This document shows, piece after piece, positions 44,617 to 57,930 of a DNA stretch of 64,000 nucleotides. The notes under the pieces are model-generated. The model was not told the DNA's origin and searched no databases. It was given only the letters and a program-made list of their open reading frames with translations. Made by a program: the position numbers and the translations under genes. The number at the start of each line of letters is the position of its first letter. Position 1 is the stretch's first letter. Source of the DNA: Escherichia coli (GTDB lineage: Bacteria > Pseudomonadota > Gammaproteobacteria > Enterobacterales > Enterobacteriaceae). The stretch lies in the NCBI RefSeq assembly GCF_050920415.1, contig NZ_CP169309.1; one strand, given 5' to 3'.

Positions 44617-45195
44617 ATGGATCTGTTGATTGTTTTAACTTACGTGGCGCTGGCATGGGCGGTCTTTAAAATCTTCCGTATTCCGGTGAATCAGTGGACG
44701 CTGGCGACGGCGGCGCTGGGAGGCGTTTTTCTGGTAAGCGGTTTGATTTTGTTGATGAACTACAACCACCCTTACACTTTTACCGCACAGAAAGCGGTGA
44801 TTGCTATTCCCATCACGCCACAGGTGACGGGGATCGTGACTGAAGTCACTGACAAGAATAATCAGCTTATTCAGAAGGGCGAGGTGCTTTTTAAGCTCGA
44901 CCCGGTACGTTATCAGGCGCGAGTCGACAGACTTCAGGCTGACCTGATGACGGCGACGCATAATATAAAGACGCTGCGCGCGCAGCTCACTGAAGCGCAA
45001 GCCAATACCACCCAGGTTTCAGCGGAGCGTGACCGCTTGTTTAAAAATTATCAACGTTACCTGAAAGGCAGCCAGGCGGCGGTAAATCCGTTCTCAGAAC
45101 GTGATATCGACGATGCGCGGCAGAATTTTCTCGCGCAGGATGCGCTGGTGAAAGGTTCGGTGGCGGAACAGGCGCAAATCCAGAGCCAGCTCGAC
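44617..45195 (+). pseudogene. yibH: yibH 5' fragment (HlyD-family membrane fusion protein), 193 codons, interrupted by IS insertion
   Basis: [23 protein letters not shown]... reading frame runs into IS left end at 45196; the rest of the gene resumes at 47324. Confidence 0.85.
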
Positions 45196-45296
45196 TGTCA
45201 GCGCCAATGATATAAGACAGTAATTCACCATTTGGATTGTCCGCTCCACCCAACATGTTGTTTCCTTAAGGTTCCTACACCACAAAGGGAACACTC

Positions 45297-46343
45297 ATGC
45301 TGAGCAGAGAGGACTTTTACATGATAAAGCAAATGCGCCAGCAAGGTGCGTATATTGTTGATATTGCCACTCAGGTTGGTTGCTCTGAGCGGACTGTCAG
45401 ACGGTACCTGAAATACCCGGAACCTCCGGCCAGAAAAACACGCCACAAAATGGCCAAACTCAAGCCGTTCATGGACTATATCGACATGCGTCTGGCTGAG
45501 AATGTCTGGAACGGCGAGGTCATCCTGGCGGAAATCAAAGCGATGGGTTATACCGGTGGCCGTTCCATGTTGCGTTACTACATCCAGCCCAAACGTAAGA
45601 TGCGGCCATCGAAGAAAACGGTTCGCTTCGAAACTCAGCCCGGTTACCAGCTACAGCATGACTGGGGAGAAGTTGAGGCTGAGGTTGCCGGGCAACGATG
45701 CAGGGTTAACTTCGCGGTTAATACGCTGGGGTTCTCACGTCGCTTCCATGTCTTCGCGGCACCAAAGCAGGATGCTGAACATACCTATGAGTCACTGGTC
45801 CGCGCCTTTCGCTACTTCGGCGGCAGCGTGAAAACCGTGCTGGTCGATAACCAGAAAGCCGCAGTGCTGAAAAATAACAACGGGAAGGTGGTGTTCAACT
45901 CCGGGTTCCTGCTGCTGGCCGATCACTATGGCTTCCTGCCACGGGCCTGCCGTCCACGAAGGGCCAGAACCAAAGGTAAGGTGGAACGGATGGTGAAATA
46001 CCTCAAGGAAAACTTCTTCGTCCGGTACCGCCGGTTCGACAGCTTCGCCCATGTTAATCAGCTACTGGAGCAGTGGATGGCTGACGTTGCCGACAGGCGG
46101 GAACTTCGCCAGTTCAGGCAGACACCGGAACAGCGCTTCACGCAGGAACAGGTGCATCTGCAGGCGCTGCCAGGTACGGACTTCGATACCAGCTACTTCG
46201 ATATCCGTCATGTCTCCTGGGATGGCTATATCGAGGTTGGCGGGAACCGTTACAGCGTGCCGGAAAGCCTGTGTGGCCAGCCGGTATCAATACGGATCTC
46301 GCTGGATGATGAACTGCGATTTACAGTAATGAGCAACAGGTAG
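45297..46343 (+). pseudogene. istA: IS21-family transposase IstA, frameshifted near 3' end (348 aa as read; about 390 aa if the -1 shift around 46313-46343 is repaired, then ending at 46468)
   Basis: HTH N-terminus and integrase-core-like body; alternative frame open from 46313 to TGA at 46466-46468, which overlaps the istB ATG. Confidence 0.8.
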
Positions 46344-46455
46344 CATCGCACCGTCTCTGTTCGGCTGTATACGGCTGGCAGACCGTGCCGGAGCATCACG
46401 CCCCACTCTGGCAGCAGGTCAGTCAGGTGGAACACAGGCCGTTGAGTGCCTATGA

Positions 46456-47262
<807 letters not shown>

Positions 47263-47323: not shown

Positions 47324-47881
47324 AGTATGGTTAACGGTGAGCAGTCGCAGATTGTCAGCTTAAGGGCGCAGCTTACCGAAGCGAAATATAACCTTGAGCA
47401 GACCGTCATTCGCGCGCCGAGCAATGGCTACGTTACTCAGGTACTGATCCGCCCAGGTACATACGCAGCTGCCTTGCCGCTACGTCCGGTGATGGTTTTC
47501 ATCCCCGAGCAAAAACGGCAAATTGTCGCCCAATTTCGGCAGAACTCGCTGTTACGTCTGAAACCCGGCGATGATGCGGAAGTAGTGTTTAACGCGCTAC
47601 CTGGGCAGGTGTTCCACGGCAAACTGACTAGTATTTTACCTGTCGTGCCAGGTGGTTCGTATCAGGCGCAGGGGGTACTGCAATCATTAACCGTCGTACC
47701 CGGCACGGACGGTGTGCTGGGAACCATCGAACTGGACCCTAACGCTGATATCGATGCTTTACCCGACGGCATCTACGCCCAGGTGGCAGTTTACTCCGAC
47801 CATTTCAGCCATGTTTCGGTGATGCGGAAGGTGCTGCTAAGAATGACCAGTTGGATGCATTATCTTTATTTGGATCATTGA
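47324..47881 (+). pseudogene. yibH: yibH 3' fragment (185 codons); joins in-frame with 44617-45195 to give 378 aa once IS and TSD are removed
   Basis: ...[32 protein letters not shown]... typical HlyD/EmrA-like; frame arithmetic confirms. Confidence 0.85.
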
Positions 47882-48185
47882 GGGGGGCGGGGGAGATTAT
47901 GGAACTTTGCTCCTTGTAAGGACTAATTATTTTTGCATATTACTTCATTGGCTGCGATGATTTTTCTTTAATATTCATTAGGTTGAGAAGTTCTTGATGA
48001 GTGTGCTCTCATTGGATTTTTTATCCGTCTTGTTCTGCCGCAGGATCAGACTATACATCGTCGAGATCGCAATGATTATGAATTGTTCCTCTGCGACGAT
48101 GCTAATCAAAAAAGTGCTGGAGTGCTTTTCCATCTATTGCGATGATGGTTTTATTATCTGAAGAATGACAGTCACACATCCAGCT

Positions 48186-48457
48186 AATAAAGAACTCGTG
48201 AAATTTTCCAGGACTGATACAGGACACAACTCTGGTAATGATATCGTGAATAGGAATACCATATTAAAAATCACCATATTGCTTCAACAAATCGAGATGA
48301 GTCTCACCAGAATCCTCTATATCTTCCCATCCTTCAGCTCCGGAAATGATGGCGAAAATAATCAGCACTAGGATATCTGATAATTTATACTCTACTTTCC
48401 AGACTTGTCTGTAATCGGGACAGTAGAAATATGCTCCATTAATTTTTTAAGTTCCAT
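48186..48457 (-). pseudogene. H-repeat (ISAs1-family) transposase N-terminal fragment, degraded copy 1 (frameshift and in-frame stop)
   Basis: Begins ATG-GAA-CTT-AAA-AAA (MELKKLM...) like copy 2 at 50276-50572 but carries a 1-nt deletion and a stop. Confidence 0.7.
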
Positions 48458-48915
48458 TTTTTCTCCTTGTTTATGTAAGGAGTGTCTGAATATATATAAG
48501 CTATGAAAACACTTATTAAATAATAAGGGATATCTTGATTATTGGACATTTAGTGCTAATTGTTTAGTGCAAAAAATCGGCGTTATATGGTCTTTACCTT
48601 TATTACCCTTGCTGTTTTCCTCCAGCCTATGAAAAGCCAGCTTCAGTAAATCGTACCGCCCGAACATTGTAAGATACAATTTACTGACAACTTAGTACAT
48701 TATTAATATCACATTTAAGCTTTTTTTTCAGATTATAAAGCCTGTCCACTTTATAATCTTTGCAATTATAAACGTATTCTTTTTTTGTTTTCATATCAAT
48801 GACACTAACCCCTCGCATGTTACTACCGTTGTCGTAATTGCTAAACACGGAGTACTTATATCCACTTTGAATAAAACTAACGCTAAAGTAATCCGTTTGA
48901 AATCTGGAGTAATGA

Positions 48916-49128
48916 TTATAAAAAATCCTGAATACATTGGTCCATCTGAAATGAATTGAAATTTATCCCATGCTGACTATTCATTTCATAAATCAACGTT
49001 TCACCAAAACTTGTTAATGACAAAGTTCCTTTGGATGTATTACATAAAAAATAATTATTTCCTGCGTTTAGAGTCCAGGGAATTCCAGATAAAAAAATAA
49101 AAATTAATGCTCTATCTATATTGCTCAT
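48916..49128 (-). CDS. Small hypothetical protein (70 aa) with N-terminal hydrophobic segment; candidate immunity protein for the orphan muramidase-like toxin domain
   Basis: ORF start overlaps the stop of the orphan toxin ORF by 17 bp; MSNIDRALIFIFLSGIPWTLNAG... Confidence 0.35.
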   Translation of the reverse strand: MSNIDRALIFIFLSGIPWTLNAGNNYFLCNTSKGTLSLTSFGETLIYEMNSQHGINFNSFQMDQCIQDFL

Positions 49129-50276
49129 AATTAGCCCTTATTCTGTCATCATATCCTCGCTGACTTTGCCCATTATAACATAGAGCAAAGTTAAGCCAAT
49201 CTTTATCTCTAATAGCACGCAATAATACAGGATTAGATTTTATGAAGTTAATGAATGCCGCCAGATGGTTTTTCTCTGACTCTGAAATCGATATTATAAA
49301 CTCTTCGGGCGAAGAGTACCCGGCAGCTTGGTAATTTGAAGCCAATATCTGAAATTTACCCCACGATGCCGATTTAAGCGCAGCTTGCTTATCTAAAACA
49401 TATGCACGAAGTAATTTTTGATATTGCTCCGATCGTGTTCCATAACCGCCAGAACGGCTGTTGGAAATATCAGGTTGAGAATCATACACACCATTCGTAT
49501 ATCGATGGAAATGATGTCTTTCAAAAAGAATTGAGGGGACGTAATCATCTTCTTGTTCAAATTTAAAATAGCTACCGGAACTACCAGTTTCAGTTTTTGC
49601 AACAGCTTTAATTGCAGCCACTTCGCATTGTAGTGTCCTTGCAGCATTTTCATAGTCTGCATCATCAATGGTATCTCCGTTATAAAATCGTAAAAATTCC
49701 AATGGAATAAGTTCATTATTTACAGGAGTTTTTGGGTAATTGCTATTATTAATAGCATTCAAAAACACAACCGGATGAAAATGCCACACAGCATCATCAC
49801 TATTAAACGGAGACACCCCGCTCATCCACTCCAGATCCAGCTGCCACTTTTCACAGTATGCCACTTCCTCGGGTCCAGATCTTTATAAAACCCTTCCCAG
49901 CGTCCCGTCGAGCGACCGCCGTACCACTCGCTGTGGTGTCTGACTGTCAGACGATTCACCACATTTCTCACCAGTGGTTCACGCACGGTCAGCGCCTGTC
50001 TGATCTCTTCCTCCGTCACTTTTCCATCACCGTCCTGATCCATACCCGCCATCAGCTCACGATAAAAGGGCGGTACCTGCTCATACAGCCACTCATCTCC
50101 CTGTTCTGCGGCACGGCTTATTGAGTCAAACGCTTCCGGCACCCATCCTTCGTACGGGCTGTACGTCATGTCACCGCTGCTGTTCTCCTCCAGCGGCTGA
50201 AAACCCAGCTTCAGTAAATCATACTGTCCGGCCTCTTCAACATCCTTCTGTGGCAGCCAGCCGGTTCCGGTGATAT
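49112..50276 (-). pseudogene. Displaced (orphan) effector 3' module: shared pre-toxin region with EF-hand loop plus a distinct C-terminal N-acetylmuramidase-like domain; 5'-truncated and carrying a 1-nt frameshift near 49866
   Basis: 49764-50276 is near-identical to 52116-52630 of the full-length effector; downstream domain has ...FERHHFHRYT... and ...SWGKFQILASNY... motifs; no start codon; two overlapping ORFs (49822-50391, 49112-49864). Confidence 0.75.
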
Positions 50277-50572
50277 TAAGCCGCCTCTGGTTTCCTTTTA
50301 ATAAAGCACTCGTGAAATTTTGCAGGACTGATACAGGATACAACTCTGGCAATGGTATCGTGAACAGGAATACCATTATCAAAATCACCATATTGCTTCA
50401 AAAAATCGAGATGTGTTTCCCCAAAATCCTCTATATCTTCCCAGCCTTCTGCACCCGAAATAACGGCACAAATAGTCAACAGTAGAATATCCGATAATTT
50501 ATGTTGCACTTTCCAGGCTTGTCTGTAATCGGGGATAATAGAAATATGTCCCATCAATTTTTTAAGTTCCAT
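50276..50572 (-). pseudogene. H-repeat (ISAs1-family) transposase N-terminal fragment, copy 2 (about 92 codons then truncated)
   Basis: [64 protein letters not shown]... matches the start of E. coli H-rpt proteins, then loses homology. Confidence 0.8.
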
Positions 50573-50873
50573 TTTGTTCTCCTTAATTATGTAAGGAGTA
50601 TTTGATCATGTATAAGCAATAAAAAACAGCTTTAGGTAATGAGGAATATCTCAATTTTCAAACATAAAATGCGAATTGTCTAGTACAAAAAAGCAGCGTT
50701 ACGTGATCTTTCCCTGCCTGCCTGTACGATATCCCTCAAAAATAATTTTCCAGTCAGTTATTCATGTCTAACTTAAAATCATAAAACATTTAAATTAATA
50801 ATAAACAAATTCAACCTAGTCGCATTATTATTTTAATAACACAGCATCGATTTCATAAAAAACTGCACAATGG

Positions 50874-51284
50874 TCATCCAGTCCATTTGCAATCAGTACC
50901 ATCATCATTATATGCCTCAATATTTTCTTCAAACTCAGTTGTTTTCCCACTTATTGATTTATAATGAAACAAATTAAATCTTGCACCTTGTGTGGAAACA
51001 ACATACAACCCATTAATTTTTCCATTTACAACCTCGCTCCATGCATAAGAAAATTCAGAAGGCCTGTCATCGAAAGTCACTTCTAATTTATTTATAAACG
51101 CAAGAGGTATAAATTTTGAGGATTTCTCATAAATCACATAACCTAAAAAAATATCGCCAGACGATATTTCAACAAACTTTAAATTTGTTTTCCCAGCGCT
51201 AAAACAGCCTACCGTTGTTTGTTGTTTAGCCAATAAACAACAAGGCACCAAACAAAACAGTAAAACCAATAAGTTAACTTTCAT
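50874..51284 (-). CDS. Candidate immunity protein (136 aa, cleavable signal peptide) for the upstream GH19-like effector
   Basis: MKVNLLVLLFCLVPCCLLA...; 5 bp downstream of effector stop; small secreted protein. Confidence 0.55.
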   Translation of the reverse strand: MKVNLLVLLFCLVPCCLLAKQQTTVGCFSAGKTNLKFVEISSGDIFLGYVIYEKSSKFIPLAFINKLEVTFDDRPSEFSYAWSEVVNGKINGLYVVSTQGARFNLFHYKSISGKTTEFEENIEAYNDDGTDCKWTG

Positions 51285-51289
51285 ATCAA

Positions 51290-53779
51290 TTACTCCAGTT
51301 CAGTTATTCGTCTCTCTACAAATGTGGATATATTCCTTTTTTCTATTCCATATACTTTTCTATCACCCTCACGCCCTTCCTGAGGAAACGGATGCAGGTC
51401 AATTAATTCTTTCGCCCTTCTATAACCTTTTAATGCTTCTTCGTTACTCTTGATCGTCCCTCTTCGGGAGCTATCAGGATCATGCCATATCCCCCATCCC
51501 AAAGCATATACTTTATTATCATATACGTCACTATCATCAAACAAGAAATCGTCGTTCATTGCTTTCTGATTTAAATGCTCGGCAGCAAGTGAGGTAACCA
51601 ATTTATTAAATATCGACAACCGTTCATCATAATGATTATACCCTCCATTAATCACTGCTGTAATTTTATTAAAATCATCATTTTTAGCATCTTCATTTAT
51701 TCTTTTGAATATATTGAAATACCAAAACGCAGATAATACGCAATGTGGGGAGGATATAAGTTTATCTCTTGCGGAATCTGAAGATGTTACGTCCTCATTG
51801 ATATATTCCCCATAGGCGGTGTAATTACTTTCCCCTGTAACTTGTATTAAGCCTCGGCCATACCACGGACTATATGAAGCTGATTCACCATTAATTTCTT
51901 TGGTATATCTAAAATAACCGCTCTCGTGAATAATTTGAGCAAGAAAATGGGCTTTTTCTCTACAAGTGGTCATACCAAACCGAATAAACCCTGCATTTAT
52001 ATCGTAGAGGTACCTTTTGAGAAGACCTTCACTTACTGCAGGAGCAACTTTTTTTAATTCATCTAATGTTATATCTCTGTTGCAAGCACACACAGATTTG
52101 GAATTAATAGCGTCCAAAAACACAACCGGATGAAAATGCCACACAGCATCATCACTATTAAACGGAGATACCCCGCTCATCCACTCCAGATCCAGCTGCC
52201 ACTTCTCACAGTATGCCACTTCCTCTGTGTCCAGATCTTTATAAAATCCTTCCCACCGCCCTGTCGAGCGCCCTCCGTACCATTCGCTGTGGTGTTTAAC
52301 TATCAGATGATTCACCACATTTCTCACCAGTGGTTCACGCACGGTCAGCGCCTGTCTGATCTCTTCCTCCGTCACTTTTCCATCACCGTCCTGATCCATA
52401 CCCGCCATCAGCTCACGATAAAAGGGCGGTACCTGCTCATACAGCCACTCATCTCCCTGTTCTGCGGCACGGCTTATTGAGTCAAACGCTTCCGGCACCC
52501 ATCCTTCGTACGGGCTGTACGTCATGTCACCGCTGCTGTTCTCCTCCAGCGGTTGAAAACCCAGCTTCAGTAAATCATACTGTCCGGCCTCTTCAACATC
52601 CTTTTGTGGCAGCCAGCCGGTTCCGGTGATATTAAACCACCACTGCTGCGATTCATCCGTGATCGGTGTCGTGGCTTCCCGCGGAAGAACGCGCTGAGCA
52701 CCCAGTGTGGCTGCGGTTGCGGTAAATACCTCCTGTCCCGGAACGGCCTGCCGGGTGTATAAAATTATCCCTTTTGGTGCCAGAACAGTCCGTTTTTCTC
52801 CCTTAACGCCTGCCGGGTTGGATAAGAACTTTGGCATATTCGGGTCTGTACTCAGAACCTCCAGATGGACGAACCACTCGCGCTCAATCTCACCGCTTCC
52901 CTCGCCAGGATAATCCTCGCATCCCATAAATCCGACCGGTGTTCCGGCACTGACTTTCCACTCTTCCGTTTCGTCGACCGTCTGTACCGAGTCAAAAATG
53001 CCTTTTGCCTTCGCCTTCTGCATCCACTCAGGCATCAGCATCTGTATTTCGCCATCTGACTCCATCAGATCCGGATCCAGGGTCACCCAGTACTGCTCAT
53101 TCCCCGGTTTATTGCCTTCCAGCAGGCGAACCAGTCCGAATGTCGTCAGGACCGGCTGGCCGTTATTGGTCACGTAAAAACGTCCGGTCCGGGATGACAC
53201 AAACCGATCTCCCGCATTAAGTGTCCTGTTTCCGCTGATTTTCGGGGGTATCCAGTACGTGGCATGATCTCCGCTTTCCTGCCCCTCGGGAAGGCCGTTC
53301 TTTCCCGGGATGTATCGGTGCAGCAATATGCCACCATGCCCGGTTTTAACTTTATAGCAGGGGGAGCCGGGATAATCGTTCACCGGGGCCAGATGCATAT
53401 AGAGACAGTAAAATTCCAGCCAGCTTTCTTTTTTTTGCGGGTCTGGCTGGCACTGCGATTTCACCAGAACAAATGTGCTGCTGTAACGGAGTTGCTGCCC
53501 TTTGTAGGTGCCTTTCAGGTAATCATTATTTATCCGGTACGCCGCAATGGTGCCATCGGCCATAAACTGAAGAGGAACCGGTTCTCCGGTAGCGGCGGTA
53601 TCCGGTTTCAGGGCTGATAACGGATTAGACACGTCACTGATATGTATCCCGCCGTGCCACAGCCCGTTTCCACCCAGCAGCCAGGTTCCGTGCGCTTCTT
53701 TGTCAATAAGCCGCATTATCTCATCCAGCGAGCGAAACTCTTTGCCTTCTTTATCCCTGATGGGATGGCTGATTTTCAT
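51290..53779 (-). CDS. VgrG-linked candidate T6SS effector, 829 aa: N-terminal domain of unknown function, central EF-hand-like Ca-binding loop, C-terminal GH19/lysozyme-like peptidoglycan hydrolase domain
   Basis: 9 bp downstream of vgrG stop; DQDGDGKVTEEE loop; C-terminal ...AHFLAQIIHESGYFRYTKE...YGRGLIQVTGESNYTAYG...LSAFWYFN... resembling the GH19 / COG3179 signature. Confidence 0.7.
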   Translation of the reverse strand: MKISHPIRDKEGKEFRSLDEIMRLIDKEAHGTWLLGGNGLWHGGIHISDVSNPLSALKPDTAATGEPVPLQFMADGTIAAYRINNDYLKGTYKGQQLRYSSTFVLVKSQCQPDPQKKESWLEFYCLYMHLAPVNDYPGSPCYKVKTGHGGILLHRYIPGKNGLPEGQESGDHATYWIPPKISGNRTLNAGDRFVSSRTGRFYVTNNGQPVLTTFGLVRLLEGNKPGNEQYWVTLDPDLMESDGEIQMLMPEWMQKAKAKGIFDSVQTVDETEEWKVSAGTPVGFMGCEDYPGEGSGEIEREWFVHLEVLSTDPNMPKFLSNPAGVKGEKRTVLAPKGIILYTRQAVPGQEVFTATAATLGAQRVLPREATTPITDESQQWWFNITGTGWLPQKDVEEAGQYDLLKLGFQPLEENSSGDMTYSPYEGWVPEAFDSISRAAEQGDEWLYEQVPPFYRELMAGMDQDGDGKVTEEEIRQALTVREPLVRNVVNHLIVKHHSEWYGGRSTGRWEGFYKDLDTEEVAYCEKWQLDLEWMSGVSPFNSDDAVWHFHPVVFLDAINSKSVCACNRDITLDELKKVAPAVSEGLLKRYLYDINAGFIRFGMTTCREKAHFLAQIIHESGYFRYTKEINGESASYSPWYGRGLIQVTGESNYTAYGEYINEDVTSSDSARDKLISSPHCVLSAFWYFNIFKRINEDAKNDDFNKITAVINGGYNHYDERLSIFNKLVTSLAAEHLNQKAMNDDFLFDDSDVYDNKVYALGWGIWHDPDSSRRGTIKSNEEALKGYRRAKELIDLHPFPQEGREGDRKVYGIEKRNISTFVERRITELE

Positions 53780-53788
53780 GTTCAGTCC

Positions 53789-55990
53789 TTATCGTGAGAA
53801 TCTTCCCGGCCGTTGTGGCGGTACCTTATCCTGCTGGGGAGGATCAAAGGCTTCCTGTACATTTTTCCGTGGTGGCTCCGCCCCTTCAGTTCCAGGTCCG
53901 CCATTGTCATAATCTGCCAGCGCTTTCAAAACCGCCGGTCGTAGTGTCGGCACCGGCGTTCCCGGACTACCGCCGCTATTGAGATTGATTTTCGGCCCGA
54001 CGATGTCCACGCCCCCTGAATGGATGACCACAAACGAACCACCCACCTTCAGGGTGATTTTACCGCCACTCTCCAGTACGATTTCATCCCGGACCTTCAT
54101 TCCCAGCGCACCGGTAATCTTCCTCGCCAGGTCGCCCTTCACCTCCAGACTGTGCGTTCCCTCCACCAGACTGATATGGTTCCCCGTCGTCTTATGCTCC
54201 TGCTTCCCTTCCACCGTCACTTTACGGTCGTTTCTGACATACAGGCCGTCATCGTGACTCACGCTCACCGTCCGGTCATTCGTCACCTTCAGCGTCTGGT
54301 CATTACGTACCGTTATGCGCCGGTCGTTCGCCACCGTGATACTCTGGTCGTGGCCCCCTTCTTTTCTGGTGCCGACCTCAACCGTCTGCCCCTTCACCAC
54401 CCTTATCTTCTGGTCGTTACCGATGGTCTCCGTATGGTCATGCTTCACGTCCGTCGTCCGGTCGTTAAGCACCTCCGTGTCCATGTTCTTCTGCGCGTGG
54501 ATATACACCTGCTCACTGTCCGTCGCATCCTCGAAACGCAGTTCATTAAAGCCGCTTCCTTTATAGGTCTTCGAGCGGATGGTCATCTGCGTCCGCGTGC
54601 CCGGTAAATCCCCCGGTGAACGGTTATCTTCATGGTAGGTCCGCCCCGTCACAATGGGCTGGTCCGGGTCGCCGTTCAGAAAGTCCACTATCACTTCCTG
54701 ACCCACACGCGGTATCGCCAGATTGCCGAACCCCGGTCCCGCCCATGCCTGCGACACCCGTATCCAGCATGAACTCTCCTCCGTCATCCCGTGATAACGG
54801 TCCCAGTGAAACTTCACCCGTACCCGGCCATGCTCGTCGCAGAATATCTCCTCGCCCTTCGGCCCGGTCACGATGGCACTCTGCGGGCCGTCCACCTTCG
54901 GCTTCGGCAGGGGCTGTGAGCGCCAGGTCCGGTCTGCCGGGATGACCGTGATATGGTTACTCAGTGTCGTTCCCCTCCCCTGGCTCCCGTGCAGCGCCTG
55001 CGGCTGGCTCCCCGTCAGCGTGCTGCTCACCACCTGCCACTCACGGTTCGGGTTCGCTCCCTGTACCGGATGCCCCGTCAGGGTGAACCGCCGTCCCGGC
55101 CACAGCGCCGGGGAGTTACTGATACCTGTGGCGGTTTCAGCACTGTTACGCAGCCCTTCCAGCCGGTAGCGGGTAAAGTCCTGACCATGCTGCTCGTCCT
55201 TGTAGCGCCCCGGCCAGTCCAGGATTTTGTACTGCTTCAGTTGCTCGTTGAGGTTTTCAGCATCCTCAATGTAAATACCCGGCCAGTCCGGCACCTTAAA
55301 CGTGTGGTCTTTTGAACGCACCTGCGAGGGCCGCACCTGCGCCTGGTAGCGGAACAGGCTGATGCACGCCGTCGTCACCTCACGGGTGTTCGGGTTAAAC
55401 GGTATCTCCCCGTACACCGGCAGGCCCGCCACATCATCGCACAGCGTGAGCGTCTGCTCCGGGCTGTCGTCAGCGTATCTGTCATAAAAGAAGATGCCTT
55501 CCTCCGCCCACAGCCGGGTCAGAAACGCCAGGTCGCTTTCACCGTACTGGACGCAGAACTCCCGTGCCGGGTGGCTCTCATAAAAGCGCGGCGTCCACTG
55601 CGTCACTCCGTCCTCGTTTAACAGCGTGGCGGAGATGGCCTGAATGTCCTGCTGCTGGAAGATTCGGTAGTTCTGCCGCAGCCCGCTGCGCCACAGGGGC
55701 GGGCGTATCTGAAGGTGGTACTGCATCTGCCAGCCGTTGTGCTCCTTCATGCCTAACCCCGACACCACACCGCTCACATAACGCAGCGCCGTGCCACCCT
55801 GCCAGATGGTCAGCACGGCCCCCTTCTCCAGCAGCTTCTCCGCCGTCTGGCGGAACGAGTCGCTGGCAACGTCCACATCCAGGACGAACGGCGATGAGTA
55901 TGCCTGCGTGAGGCGGAAATCCACCACCGCGAACGTCTCCGGCACCAGTCCGTCCACCGTCAGCGTAAAACGCAGCCCTTTTAATGACAT
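53789..55990 (-). CDS. vgrG: T6SS spike protein VgrG (copy B), 733 aa
   Basis: MSLKGLRFTLTVDGL...; gp27/gp5-like regions (...GQEVIVDFLNGDPDQPIVTGRTYH...) and C-terminal beta-helix repeats (VKHDHTETIG...ITVANDRRITVRNDQTLKVTNDRTVSV...). Confidence 0.9.
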   Translation of the reverse strand: MSLKGLRFTLTVDGLVPETFAVVDFRLTQAYSSPFVLDVDVASDSFRQTAEKLLEKGAVLTIWQGGTALRYVSGVVSGLGMKEHNGWQMQYHLQIRPPLWRSGLRQNYRIFQQQDIQAISATLLNEDGVTQWTPRFYESHPAREFCVQYGESDLAFLTRLWAEEGIFFYDRYADDSPEQTLTLCDDVAGLPVYGEIPFNPNTREVTTACISLFRYQAQVRPSQVRSKDHTFKVPDWPGIYIEDAENLNEQLKQYKILDWPGRYKDEQHGQDFTRYRLEGLRNSAETATGISNSPALWPGRRFTLTGHPVQGANPNREWQVVSSTLTGSQPQALHGSQGRGTTLSNHITVIPADRTWRSQPLPKPKVDGPQSAIVTGPKGEEIFCDEHGRVRVKFHWDRYHGMTEESSCWIRVSQAWAGPGFGNLAIPRVGQEVIVDFLNGDPDQPIVTGRTYHEDNRSPGDLPGTRTQMTIRSKTYKGSGFNELRFEDATDSEQVYIHAQKNMDTEVLNDRTTDVKHDHTETIGNDQKIRVVKGQTVEVGTRKEGGHDQSITVANDRRITVRNDQTLKVTNDRTVSVSHDDGLYVRNDRKVTVEGKQEHKTTGNHISLVEGTHSLEVKGDLARKITGALGMKVRDEIVLESGGKITLKVGGSFVVIHSGGVDIVGPKINLNSGGSPGTPVPTLRPAVLKALADYDNGGPGTEGAEPPRKNVQEAFDPPQQDKVPPQRPGRFSR
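54085..54930. repeat. About 0.85-kb block near-identical to 58422-59267 (internal vgrG segment shared by both paralogs, offset 4337 bp)
   Basis: Antisense ORFs 54020-54607 and 54616-54945 are letter-identical to parts of 58204-58944 and 58953-59534; VgrG proteins identical over about 270 residues. Confidence 0.85.
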
Positions 55991-56145: not shown

Positions 56146-57075
56146 TTAATAATTCCTCAACGAATAAGGAGGAGATGCCCTGTCCCCATCAATAGTAACC
56201 ACGACCTGATTTGATCTTATTTTGAATATATTATCATTACCGCCATGATAGCCAAATCGTGCTAAAAAATCCTGAAATAGACCAGGTCCTCTATAAGGTC
56301 CACAGATTCTCCAAACCCGCCACTCCTCTATGCCATACGTTATTTTATCTATAGGATTAGTACACTCTCTTTCTGCCCGCCAGTTCATAATAGAAAGAAA
56401 ATACTCATATATATATTGTTCTGCAAACCACTCTTGATTAACTATTGTAAATTCTACCGTCCCTATATTATAACGATGAATGCCCGGTAAAAAGGCATAA
56501 TAATCGTTCAATGTGACATCAAAGGATAGCTCTTTCCCTGGTAATATCTCGCGCCAAACAGATTTACTTTTCCATTCACCAAAGCTACATTTTGTTTTTT
56601 TTAAAAAATCCAACTGAATGTTATCCATTATCGGTATAAACACACCACTACACAAGGAAGAGTAAGGCCCGCCGTTAACGTCAAGAGGAAGAGTTAGTCG
56701 ATGAACAAAATAAGATCCCTGGCTTTTATTCGATAAAACCACTGCAGCTGCTACAATATTTTCTTTCTGATGCACGGAAAGATGAAGATATATTTTATTT
56801 TTATCCTGATTATACTGACTCTCATTTTTACTGATAGTATAATATTGAAAAACAGCATAGGCTGAAAGATCATCATAATAATCATAATAATTAAGCCTTG
56901 TCGGTTCTACACGAGGATAGACACCAAGTTTTTCCATTACTCCATTCCAATGTAACTTCCCATATCTGTAATGAACCGCATAATCGCCAGAGATATCATA
57001 AGCAAATATTGGATGCACCCAAGAAAAAAAAGCAATAAAAACAATCCATCTAGCAAGCATATACTCCCCCGTCAA
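56146..57075 (-). CDS. Candidate immunity protein (309 aa, N-terminal signal peptide) for the upstream HExxH effector
   Basis: MLARWIVFIAFFSWVHPIFAYD... signal peptide; 9 bp downstream of the metallopeptidase-like gene; Trp/Tyr-rich. Confidence 0.5.
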   Translation of the reverse strand: MTGEYMLARWIVFIAFFSWVHPIFAYDISGDYAVHYRYGKLHWNGVMEKLGVYPRVEPTRLNYYDYYDDLSAYAVFQYYTISKNESQYNQDKNKIYLHLSVHQKENIVAAAVVLSNKSQGSYFVHRLTLPLDVNGGPYSSLCSGVFIPIMDNIQLDFLKKTKCSFGEWKSKSVWREILPGKELSFDVTLNDYYAFLPGIHRYNIGTVEFTIVNQEWFAEQYIYEYFLSIMNWRAERECTNPIDKITYGIEEWRVWRICGPYRGPGLFQDFLARFGYHGGNDNIFKIRSNQVVVTIDGDRASPPYSLRNY

Positions 57076-57084
57076 ATAAAAGCA

Positions 57085-57930
57085 TCAATATGGTACAGGA
57101 ATCTCGAAATAACGTTCGATATTATATGCATTCTGAAACAGTTCTGATTTTTTATCATTTTTTAATTTAGTGGCATGAGCAATATATTCGTCACCTGTAC
57201 TATACTCTATATCTACCGGCATATCTTCCGTCCACATGCCTCCAAACTTAAGTGAATCCCCGTACCTTATAAAGTGAGATAGTTCATGGCAGAGTGTCGA
57301 TGCCTTAGAGTTTTCCCCAGTGAATGGCCTATCTATAAATCTTTGTCCTATAGTTATACTTACCAAACTTTTAAAGCTTCCAGATTTTACACCCAAAATC
57401 TGATCGTAAGTTACATTGGCAGCATAAGCGTCATTATCTGTACAATTCACAAAGTTACCAATTTTGGGCCTGATTACGTCTTTGTCAACATATTCATTAC
57501 CCCCTTTGTCATTAAGAACAAGATTACAATTGGCATCACGTTTGAGGAAATGGTCATGAACGGTAACGTCTACACAATCACCTTCCACAGATAATTCCCC
57601 ACATATCTCATACAGGCGAGTAACGCCATTTCTCATATAATCCCTTGCCTTTATATTCTCTGTAAACAGAGTATTACGCCCCCCGAAAGGGAACTTTAAT
57701 TTAATATAAGTATTTCCATCAATGCCAAATATATTTATAAATTCCTGATTTTGTTCCGCCCCCCATTTATCACCAAGATCTTCTACTCTTTTTTTCAATA
57801 CAGCCATCTGCGCCTTCAGAGCCTCTCTCATCATTATTTTAAAATCATTAGTAATTTTCCCCTCCTTTAAAACTACACACTGTTCACCACTCTGGCTTTT
57901 TCCGCTCGTACTACCCTTTTCATCTCCCAT
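57085..57930 (-). CDS. VgrG-linked candidate effector, 281 aa, with HExxH zinc-metallopeptidase motif (TLCHELSHF)
   Basis: Follows vgrG copy A by 81 bp; HELSH motif in C-terminal third; no signal peptide. Confidence 0.6.
   Translation of the reverse strand: MGDEKGSTSGKSQSGEQCVVLKEGKITNDFKIMMREALKAQMAVLKKRVEDLGDKWGAEQNQEFINIFGIDGNTYIKLKFPFGGRNTLFTENIKARDYMRNGVTRLYEICGELSVEGDCVDVTVHDHFLKRDANCNLVLNDKGGNEYVDKDVIRPKIGNFVNCTDNDAYAANVTYDQILGVKSGSFKSLVSITIGQRFIDRPFTGENSKASTLCHELSHFIRYGDSLKFGGMWTEDMPVDIEYSTGDEYIAHATKLKNDKKSELFQNAYNIERYFEIPVPY

Follow-up and report, generated by a model that had tools for sequence, protein, structure and literature searches.

The window that we analysed, a stretch of 64,000 nt of Escherichia coli DNA (contig NZ_CP169309.1), includes the chromosomal yibF–yibH hot spot, the site of the RhsA element in K-12. 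Read along the minus strand, the order here is vgrG, a main effector with a GH19 tip and its immunity gene, an ISAs1 remnant, an orphan module (orphan 1) and its immunity gene, a short effector stub, a second ISAs1 remnant and yibH. The head of the array is vgrG (tssI; 53789–55990), followed by a VgrG-linked effector of 829 aa (51290–53779) that consists of a conserved N-terminal region, an EF-hand linker and a C-terminus annotated as GH19/chitinase in sister strains, and by its presumed immunity gene (50874–51284; 136 aa, without a family match). Orphan 1 (49112–50290) comprises an EF-hand linker, to about 49865, and an N-acetylmuramidase domain (PF11860, Muramidase, E 6.5e-46). It is frameshifted at about 49870 (within roughly 49865–49875), between linker and muramidase domain, into overlapping ORFs at 49822–50391 and 49112–49864; the main gene reads GACACAGAGGAAGTG at this site versus GACCCGAGGAAGTG in orphan 1, and at another locus (L008) the module is one ORF of 352 aa. 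All these features lie on the minus strand. RefSeq annotates nothing in 48459–49112 of this strain, despite the frameshifted immunity gene and the effector stub described below.

The surroundings vary between strains. Here yibH is split by an IS21-family element (ISEc62, with istA and a frameshifted istB) at 45297–47262, leaving halves at 44617–45210 and 47327–47881; the gene is intact in N96. A second vgrG island lies upstream on the minus strand, where window positions 56146–57930 hold two ORFs of 309 and 281 aa whose N96 counterpart is a single 594-aa M35 metalloendopeptidase gene; this pair looks to be either a further split effector or an arrangement of another kind. The array of E. coli RMDEC465 (locus L003, 1900–6300) is longer, with a further layer separating its GH19 module from the muramidase orphan. 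This layer consists of a full-length ISAs1 that contains an internal stop, a fragment of vgrG, a protein with an S-type pyocin domain, a bacteriocin immunity protein and a second ISAs1, itself a remnant.

Both ISAs1 (H-rpt) remnants in the window lie on the minus strand. The upper one (50274–50714) retains IS positions 1 to about 418 and about 727–752, having lost positions ~419–726 by internal deletion. Where it meets orphan 1 (50274–50330) there is a 12-nt near-identical microhomology between GGCGGCTTAATA (IS ~741–752) and GGTGGTTTAATA (effector codons WWFN), and it was through this fusion, an illegitimate recombination, that orphan 1 acquired its 5' end. The lower remnant, beside which the original prediction placed its trace of an older toxin module, is real: 47956–48600 corresponds to IS positions 1–649 and is 80.6% identical to a full-length copy in Escherichia whittamii (locus L015). 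We defined the left terminus of the element on that full-length copy, whose inverted repeats are CAGGGAAAGATCACG on the left and, reverse-complemented, CAGGGCAAGATTACG on the right. RefSeq labels the lower remnant 'ISAs1 family transposase', and homologues of the upper copy match DDE_Tnp_1_assoc. Part of the lower remnant, 47956–48176, is the K-12 pseudogene yibU next to yibH (93% identity), and window positions 47882–48176 recur at about 93% in 3,729 of the 5,426 complete E. coli genomes; the lower remnant is ancient. Homology to K-12 yibU begins at 48176, and identity to the E. whittamii IS falls from about 87% to about 72% near there. The fall may mark an old crossover within the IS; we considered such a crossover and make no claim for it, 60-nt windows being too noisy.

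Between orphan 1 and the lower remnant the original prediction described an AT-rich region with a short minus-strand ORF of about 48 codons (around 48690–48830), read as the possible immunity gene of the older module. The region is indeed AT-rich (GC 0.295 over 48681–49128), and short minus-strand ORFs are present at 48681–48848 (55 aa, GTG start) and 48791–48937 (48 aa, ATG start), but they belong to a different gene. N96 and RMDEC465 carry the same DNA at 99.4% identity, and in both it encodes an intact protein of 149 aa (WP_000065119.1) whose gene start overlaps the muramidase stop; the protein is also intact in 10 loci found by its exact sequence. Compared with N96 and RMDEC465, the window lacks one nucleotide at each of two places, AA being shortened to A at about 48966/7 and T7 to T6 at about 48925/6, and these losses split this gene (48681–49128, minus strand) into ORFs at 48916–49128, 48791–48937 and 48681–48848 and make it a pseudogene here. 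As both deletions fall in short homopolymers, they could be assembly errors.

The 149-aa protein has no Pfam, NCBIfam or PDB match, and its N-terminus, read from the sequence, resembles a signal peptide. Homologues of 43–99% identity always stand immediately downstream of a PF11860 muramidase toxin, the stop of the toxin gene overlapping the start of the next, in contexts as different as chromosomal Enterobacter T6SS loci, plasmid-like contigs near ParM/StbA-family genes, and the flank of a CBASS-type island. From this recurrent position, and from its signal-peptide-like N-terminus, the protein is presumed to be the immunity protein of orphan 1. The alternative, that the ORF at about 48690–48830 and the adjoining effector-like sequence are an old toxin stub with an immunity gene of its own, draws on the ORF's lying next to the stub and on its AT-richness, which it shares with the other immunity genes of the array. 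We regard it as very improbable. The ORF is the C-terminal part of the 149-aa muramidase immunity gene, in frame with its start at 49128, overlapping the muramidase stop and intact in other strains; it lies upstream of the effector-like sequence on the coding strand, and so cannot belong to a module that begins there; and unrelated contexts without the effector-like sequence also have this gene behind a muramidase toxin. More distant immunity homologues (P0061, P0072) likewise have no effector fragment downstream.

Beyond the stop codon of this gene lies the effector-like sequence itself. The string quoted in the original prediction for 48618–48665 is present, although it starts 2 nt later than given (48620–48665), and its resemblance to an effector segment is real. 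That segment encodes DLLKLGFQPLEE at 52541–52576 and 50185–50220. In ungapped alignment, 48605–48662 (minus strand) matches the (A)GQYDLLKLGFQPLEENSSGD-coding segment of the main effector (52529–52586) and of orphan 1 (50173–50230), both on the minus strand, at 83% over 58 nt. BLASTN within the window gave 88% over 43 nt for 48610–48652 against each effector copy (E 7e-7) and, under permissive scoring, 77% over 78 nt for 48586–48662 (E 5e-11), the final ~14 nt of the longer alignment belonging to the ISAs1 end and not to the effector. The relic is thus significantly homologous to a part of the main effector that is conserved and lies outside the tip (58 nt, 83%, E 5e-11).

Could such a short similarity, 46 nt with an exact match of merely 16 nt, be a chance resemblance in AT-poor, coding-like sequence? 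We consider this almost certainly not the case. The top ungapped local alignment (58 nt, 48 matches) scores 38, a value reached by none of 2,000 dinucleotide-preserving shuffles; shuffled sequences score 10.3 ± 1.3 with a maximum of 18, placing the relic about 21 SD above their mean. The reading frame is preserved, with FGRYDLLKLAFHRLEENSKGN in the relic against AGQYDLLKLGFQPLEENSSGD in the effector, and two other species have longer homologous versions at this very junction. Alignment, shuffle test and preserved frame together confirm the resemblance.

The relic occupies 48601–48673 on the minus strand, in the same orientation as the main effector–immunity pair and downstream of it, and consists of two pieces. 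Piece A (48658–48673), CTTACAATGTTCGGGC, is a remnant of effector codons ~209–214 (LTTFGL) and the original 5' start of the displaced fragment; it is recognisable solely by comparison with Enterobacter hormaechei, its 16 nt being too short for significance by themselves. Piece B (48601–48657) is a remnant of codons ~398–418, (Q)YDLLKLGFQPLEENSSGD, and now reads (R)YDLLKLAFHRLEENSKGN. The two are joined by an internal deletion common to the Escherichia lineages, which links codon ~214 to codon ~398 at a short CGG/TA microhomology. On its 5' side the relic begins 7 nt past the immunity stop codon (48681–48683), after a spacer (48674–48680, minus strand) that is conserved in E. whittamii and E. 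hormaechei. On its 3' side effector-like sequence stops at 48601, directly at the left terminus of ISAs1 at 48600. Beginning at codon ~209, it lacks the N-terminal delivery region, as well as any conserved start codon of its own, and neither a toxin tip nor a cognate immunity gene follows it. Because it abuts the ISAs1 terminus, with nothing but the IS remnant and yibH beyond, this is the relic of a module and not a module.

Nor is the sequence a part of the insertion element. Neither the upper ISAs1 of the window nor the other E. coli copies of ISAs1 contain it, and a 141-nt query found matches in 3 of the 5,426 complete E. coli genomes, at 3–4 places each. These are genomes that carry the effector family, which shows that the relic is not a general part of ISAs1. 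BLAST searches of the relic, near and distant, against the same 5,426 genomes returned no fuller module. The exact-protein look-up of the immunity protein yielded 10 contexts, all of the yibH haplotype with an identical relic, and metagenomes scanned for the junction pattern GTTCGGGN{2,3}TAYGATTTACTGAARCTGG yielded 0 matches.

Longer versions of the relic are found in other species. An E. whittamii locus (L015), reached by a genome-contig search with the immunity protein that returned only 2 loci, one of them informative, has an immunity gene of 75% amino acid identity and the same spacer and A/B junction as the window. Its piece B is 133 nt long (...YDLLKLGFQPLEENSSGDMTYSPYGGWVPEAFGSISRAAEQGDE), is 95.5% identical to the window effector (E 6e-48) and abuts a full-length ISAs1, so that the stub ends after codon ~444 there versus codon ~418 in E. 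coli. From 50289 down to 47956 the window is collinear with L015 (4852–7257) at 84.6%, interrupted by a single large gap of 78 nt that ends exactly at the IS terminus. The E. whittamii block ends in the full ISAs1 next to ybgA–phr, an arrangement present in 688 E. coli genomes, at what we take to be the RhsC-type site of K-12. The relic, which the original prediction called decayed, differs from its E. whittamii counterpart (~85% identity) to the same degree as do the flanking immunity gene and IS; since its divergence equals that of its flanks, it is better described as neutral co-divergence than as special decay.

The different end points of the stub, at codon ~418 in E. coli and ~444 in E. 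whittamii, might have arisen because ISAs1 inserted twice, independently, into one orphan fragment, a reading compatible with IS copies that are only 80.6% identical, lie at different chromosomal sites (yibH and ybgA) and offer no target-site duplication. We hold this to be possible but unlikely, for the block is collinear at a uniform ~85% including IS positions 1–649, and its sole large gap of 78 nt ends exactly at the IS terminus, as fits one ancestral junction followed by an IS-end-anchored deletion. The position of the 78-nt loss in E. coli suggests an adjacent deletion anchored on the IS end.

The fullest remnant lies in E. hormaechei (loci L022 and L025), where an effector of 917 aa, intact and ending in a muramidase tip, and an immunity gene of 70% amino acid identity are followed by the same spacer and then by about 500 nt of decayed effector (codons ~209–479), which matches codons 211–231, 243–272, 327–423 and 450–479 of the window effector. 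This remnant is fused to a vgrG fragment (codons 581–621), after which comes a DUF3289/DUF943 gene pair, possibly another toxin/immunity module. At the fusion (L022, 5872–6021) effector remnant ...DGKVT is joined to vgrG ...KVTVEGKQEH, apparently at a KVT-coding microhomology. The E. hormaechei junction also lies upstream of a gene whose product matches Pfam YafT (PF25851). The remnants thus form a graded series of about 500 nt in E. hormaechei, 149 nt in E. whittamii and 73 nt in E. coli, and the same junction, immunity stop plus 7 nt plus codon ~209, occurs in three lineages: at yibH in E. coli, at ybgA in E. whittamii and in the T6SS locus of E. hormaechei. The idea of a trace of an older displaced toxin module therefore stands insofar as an effector fragment lies beyond the muramidase orphan and is longer at the same junction in two species, while the assignment of an immunity gene to it does not. 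The original prediction called for a comparison with related genomes carrying intact modules at this point; the relatives compared supplied longer remnants (piece B of 133 nt in E. whittamii, ~500 nt in E. hormaechei) and no intact module.

The segment that the relic represents recurs at the starts of orphans elsewhere in the family. A Klebsiella-like locus (L017) holds an independent intact orphan whose homology to the main effector runs from KLGFQ (5002 matches 2287), and which starts no more than 20 nt from the start of relic piece B; other members of the effector family include orphan-like short proteins that start in or near the same segment. The context of a further homologue (P0007, locus L016) offered no self-homology with which to map a breakpoint. 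A Chi-like site at the clustered orphan breakpoints was considered and dropped, as exact GCTGGTGG is absent from the displayed stretches of the segment. The EF-hand linker region is common to many short orphan-like proteins (P0001–P0037) of Klebsiella, Enterobacter, Citrobacter, Cronobacter and Salmonella, and the tips on these proteins, by Pfam, are GH19, muramidase, GH108, pesticin-type lysozyme, M23 peptidase and phage lysozyme. They are a polymorphic family of peptidoglycan-hydrolase effectors, for which we found no family model. Separately, 770-aa proteins of loci L028–L033 have the same N-terminal region (33% identity over 560 aa) and muramidase tip (64.5% identity), with a homologous immunity gene; they sit on plasmid-like contigs (ParM/StbA) and beside a CBASS-type (SMODS/SAVED) island, and no vgrG was among the genes called in the ~4 kb retrieved on each side. 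The muramidase toxin family may be used outside T6SS islands.

Is the stub kept because it is useful? It might serve as a homology handle for toxin swapping, encode a 46-aa protein (MFGRYDLLKL...), or act as a leader or promoter for the IS transposase. The relic is identical in 14 of the 14 Escherichia loci examined (yibH haplotype), save for one ATG/ACG polymorphism, and orphan fragments elsewhere do act as recombination substrates (PMC3150448, PMC2935791). These 14 loci constitute one near-identical haplotype, however, so that their identity gives no sign of selection. The polymorphism abolishes the sole ATG of the 46-aa ORF, half of the loci having ACG; the ORF has no Pfam, NCBIfam or PDB match, and Rfam returned only sub-threshold noise for the relic (RsaA, 26.6 bits against a gathering score of 50). 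The longest exact match between the relic and the live effector is the 16-nt GATTTACTGAAGCTGG, and we consider 16 nt of exact identity too short for efficient RecA-dependent homologous recombination. We therefore think it highly unlikely that the stub is retained for any of these uses. No conserved start codon, no RNA family match and no exact identity beyond 16 nt was seen, and from these features the stub appears to have no present function.

We conclude that 48601–48673 is very probably a scar without function, left by an older copy of the VgrG-linked peptidoglycan-hydrolase effector gene that was displaced and of which a 5' stub survives, and that the adjacent AT-rich ORF belongs to the immunity gene of orphan 1. 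The junction sequences are observed; from such scars alone we infer the displacement and the order of events. First, a cassette of linker, muramidase tip and immunity gene would have been joined to an effector fragment that began at codon ~209, with the joint 7 nt past the immunity stop; C-terminal displacement through recombination within the conserved region of the gene should produce just such an arrangement. The displaced fragment would then have decayed, with a microhomology-type deletion linking codon ~214 to ~398 in the Escherichia lineage. Next, the left end of ISAs1 would have come to abut the fragment, by IS insertion or by an IS-adjacent deletion, and the old module would have lost its toxin tip and its immunity gene, either at this chromosomal site or elsewhere before the block arrived. 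Finally, the E. coli yibH haplotype would have lost a further 78 nt beside the IS terminus, leaving the present 16 + 57 nt.

C-terminal displacement is a known phenomenon, in which an incoming cassette of conserved region, tip and immunity gene enters by recombination within the conserved part and pushes the resident tip further downstream (PMC2935791, PMC5361080, PMC3150448); the array fits this model, and the stub is a new example of a known scar. As in Rhs arrays, the main toxin gene has behind it a set of fragments on its own strand, each with a conserved piece, an alternative tip and an immunity gene, and older tips are shunted downstream and decay (PMC2935791). The array also shares its yibF–yibH hot spot and its terminal H-rpt/ISAs1 remnant (yibU, 47956–48176) with the K-12 RhsA element. 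In contrast to Rhs systems, the effector here has no Rhs/YD repeats and is instead a VgrG-linked peptidoglycan hydrolase with an EF-hand linker, and the relic has lost both tip and immunity gene. Successive insertions likewise leave remnants downstream of the active pair in T6SS module displacement in Vibrio cholerae (Kirchberger et al., 2017; PMC5361080), a process attributed to homology-facilitated illegitimate recombination, and the microhomology junctions seen here agree with this mechanism. In Vibrio, however, old immunity genes are kept and effectors lost, whereas here an effector stub is kept and the immunity gene lost (PMC5361080). The orphan cdiA-CT/cdiI and rhs-CT/rhsI modules (Poole et al., 2011; PMC3150448) are similar in that a short conserved upstream coding stretch, without start codon or delivery domain, precedes the toxin/immunity pair; unlike this stub of ~70 nt, however, they are as a rule complete and open to reactivation. 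Its 3' boundary is the left inverted repeat of an ISAs1-family (H-rpt/ISEc1) element, although the relic is not itself part of the IS.

A more tentative idea concerns how the muramidase cassette travelled. Movement of Rhs modules through circular intermediates was proposed by Jackson et al. (2009; PMC2935791), and the stop/codon-209 junction could conceivably be the preserved joint of a circular cassette of linker, muramidase tip, immunity gene and 5' arm. Such a circle would move among genomes and Rhs-type hot spots by a single crossover in the conserved effector region, with ISAs1 copies supplying additional portable homology and end-anchored nested deletions. The block of muramidase tip, immunity gene, stub and left part of the IS stands at two classical Rhs/H-rpt sites, and the stop/codon-209 junction at a third site, in Enterobacter; this recurrence would agree with cassettes that move as circular intermediates and use homology supplied by the IS, though it is no proof of such movement.

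The relic itself is of little importance: it adds an older layer to the toxin array and corrects the local annotation. The graded series to which it belongs shows how displaced modules of this effector family erode, by microhomology deletions and by truncation at the end of an IS. The muramidase cassette travels with a fixed junction on its downstream side, and the H-rpt remnant that terminates the K-12 RhsA element (yibU) bounds a non-Rhs vgrG island as well. If the junction were indeed the joint of a circular cassette, it would constitute sequence-level evidence for the circular-intermediate model in non-Rhs, VgrG-linked peptidoglycan-hydrolase effectors.
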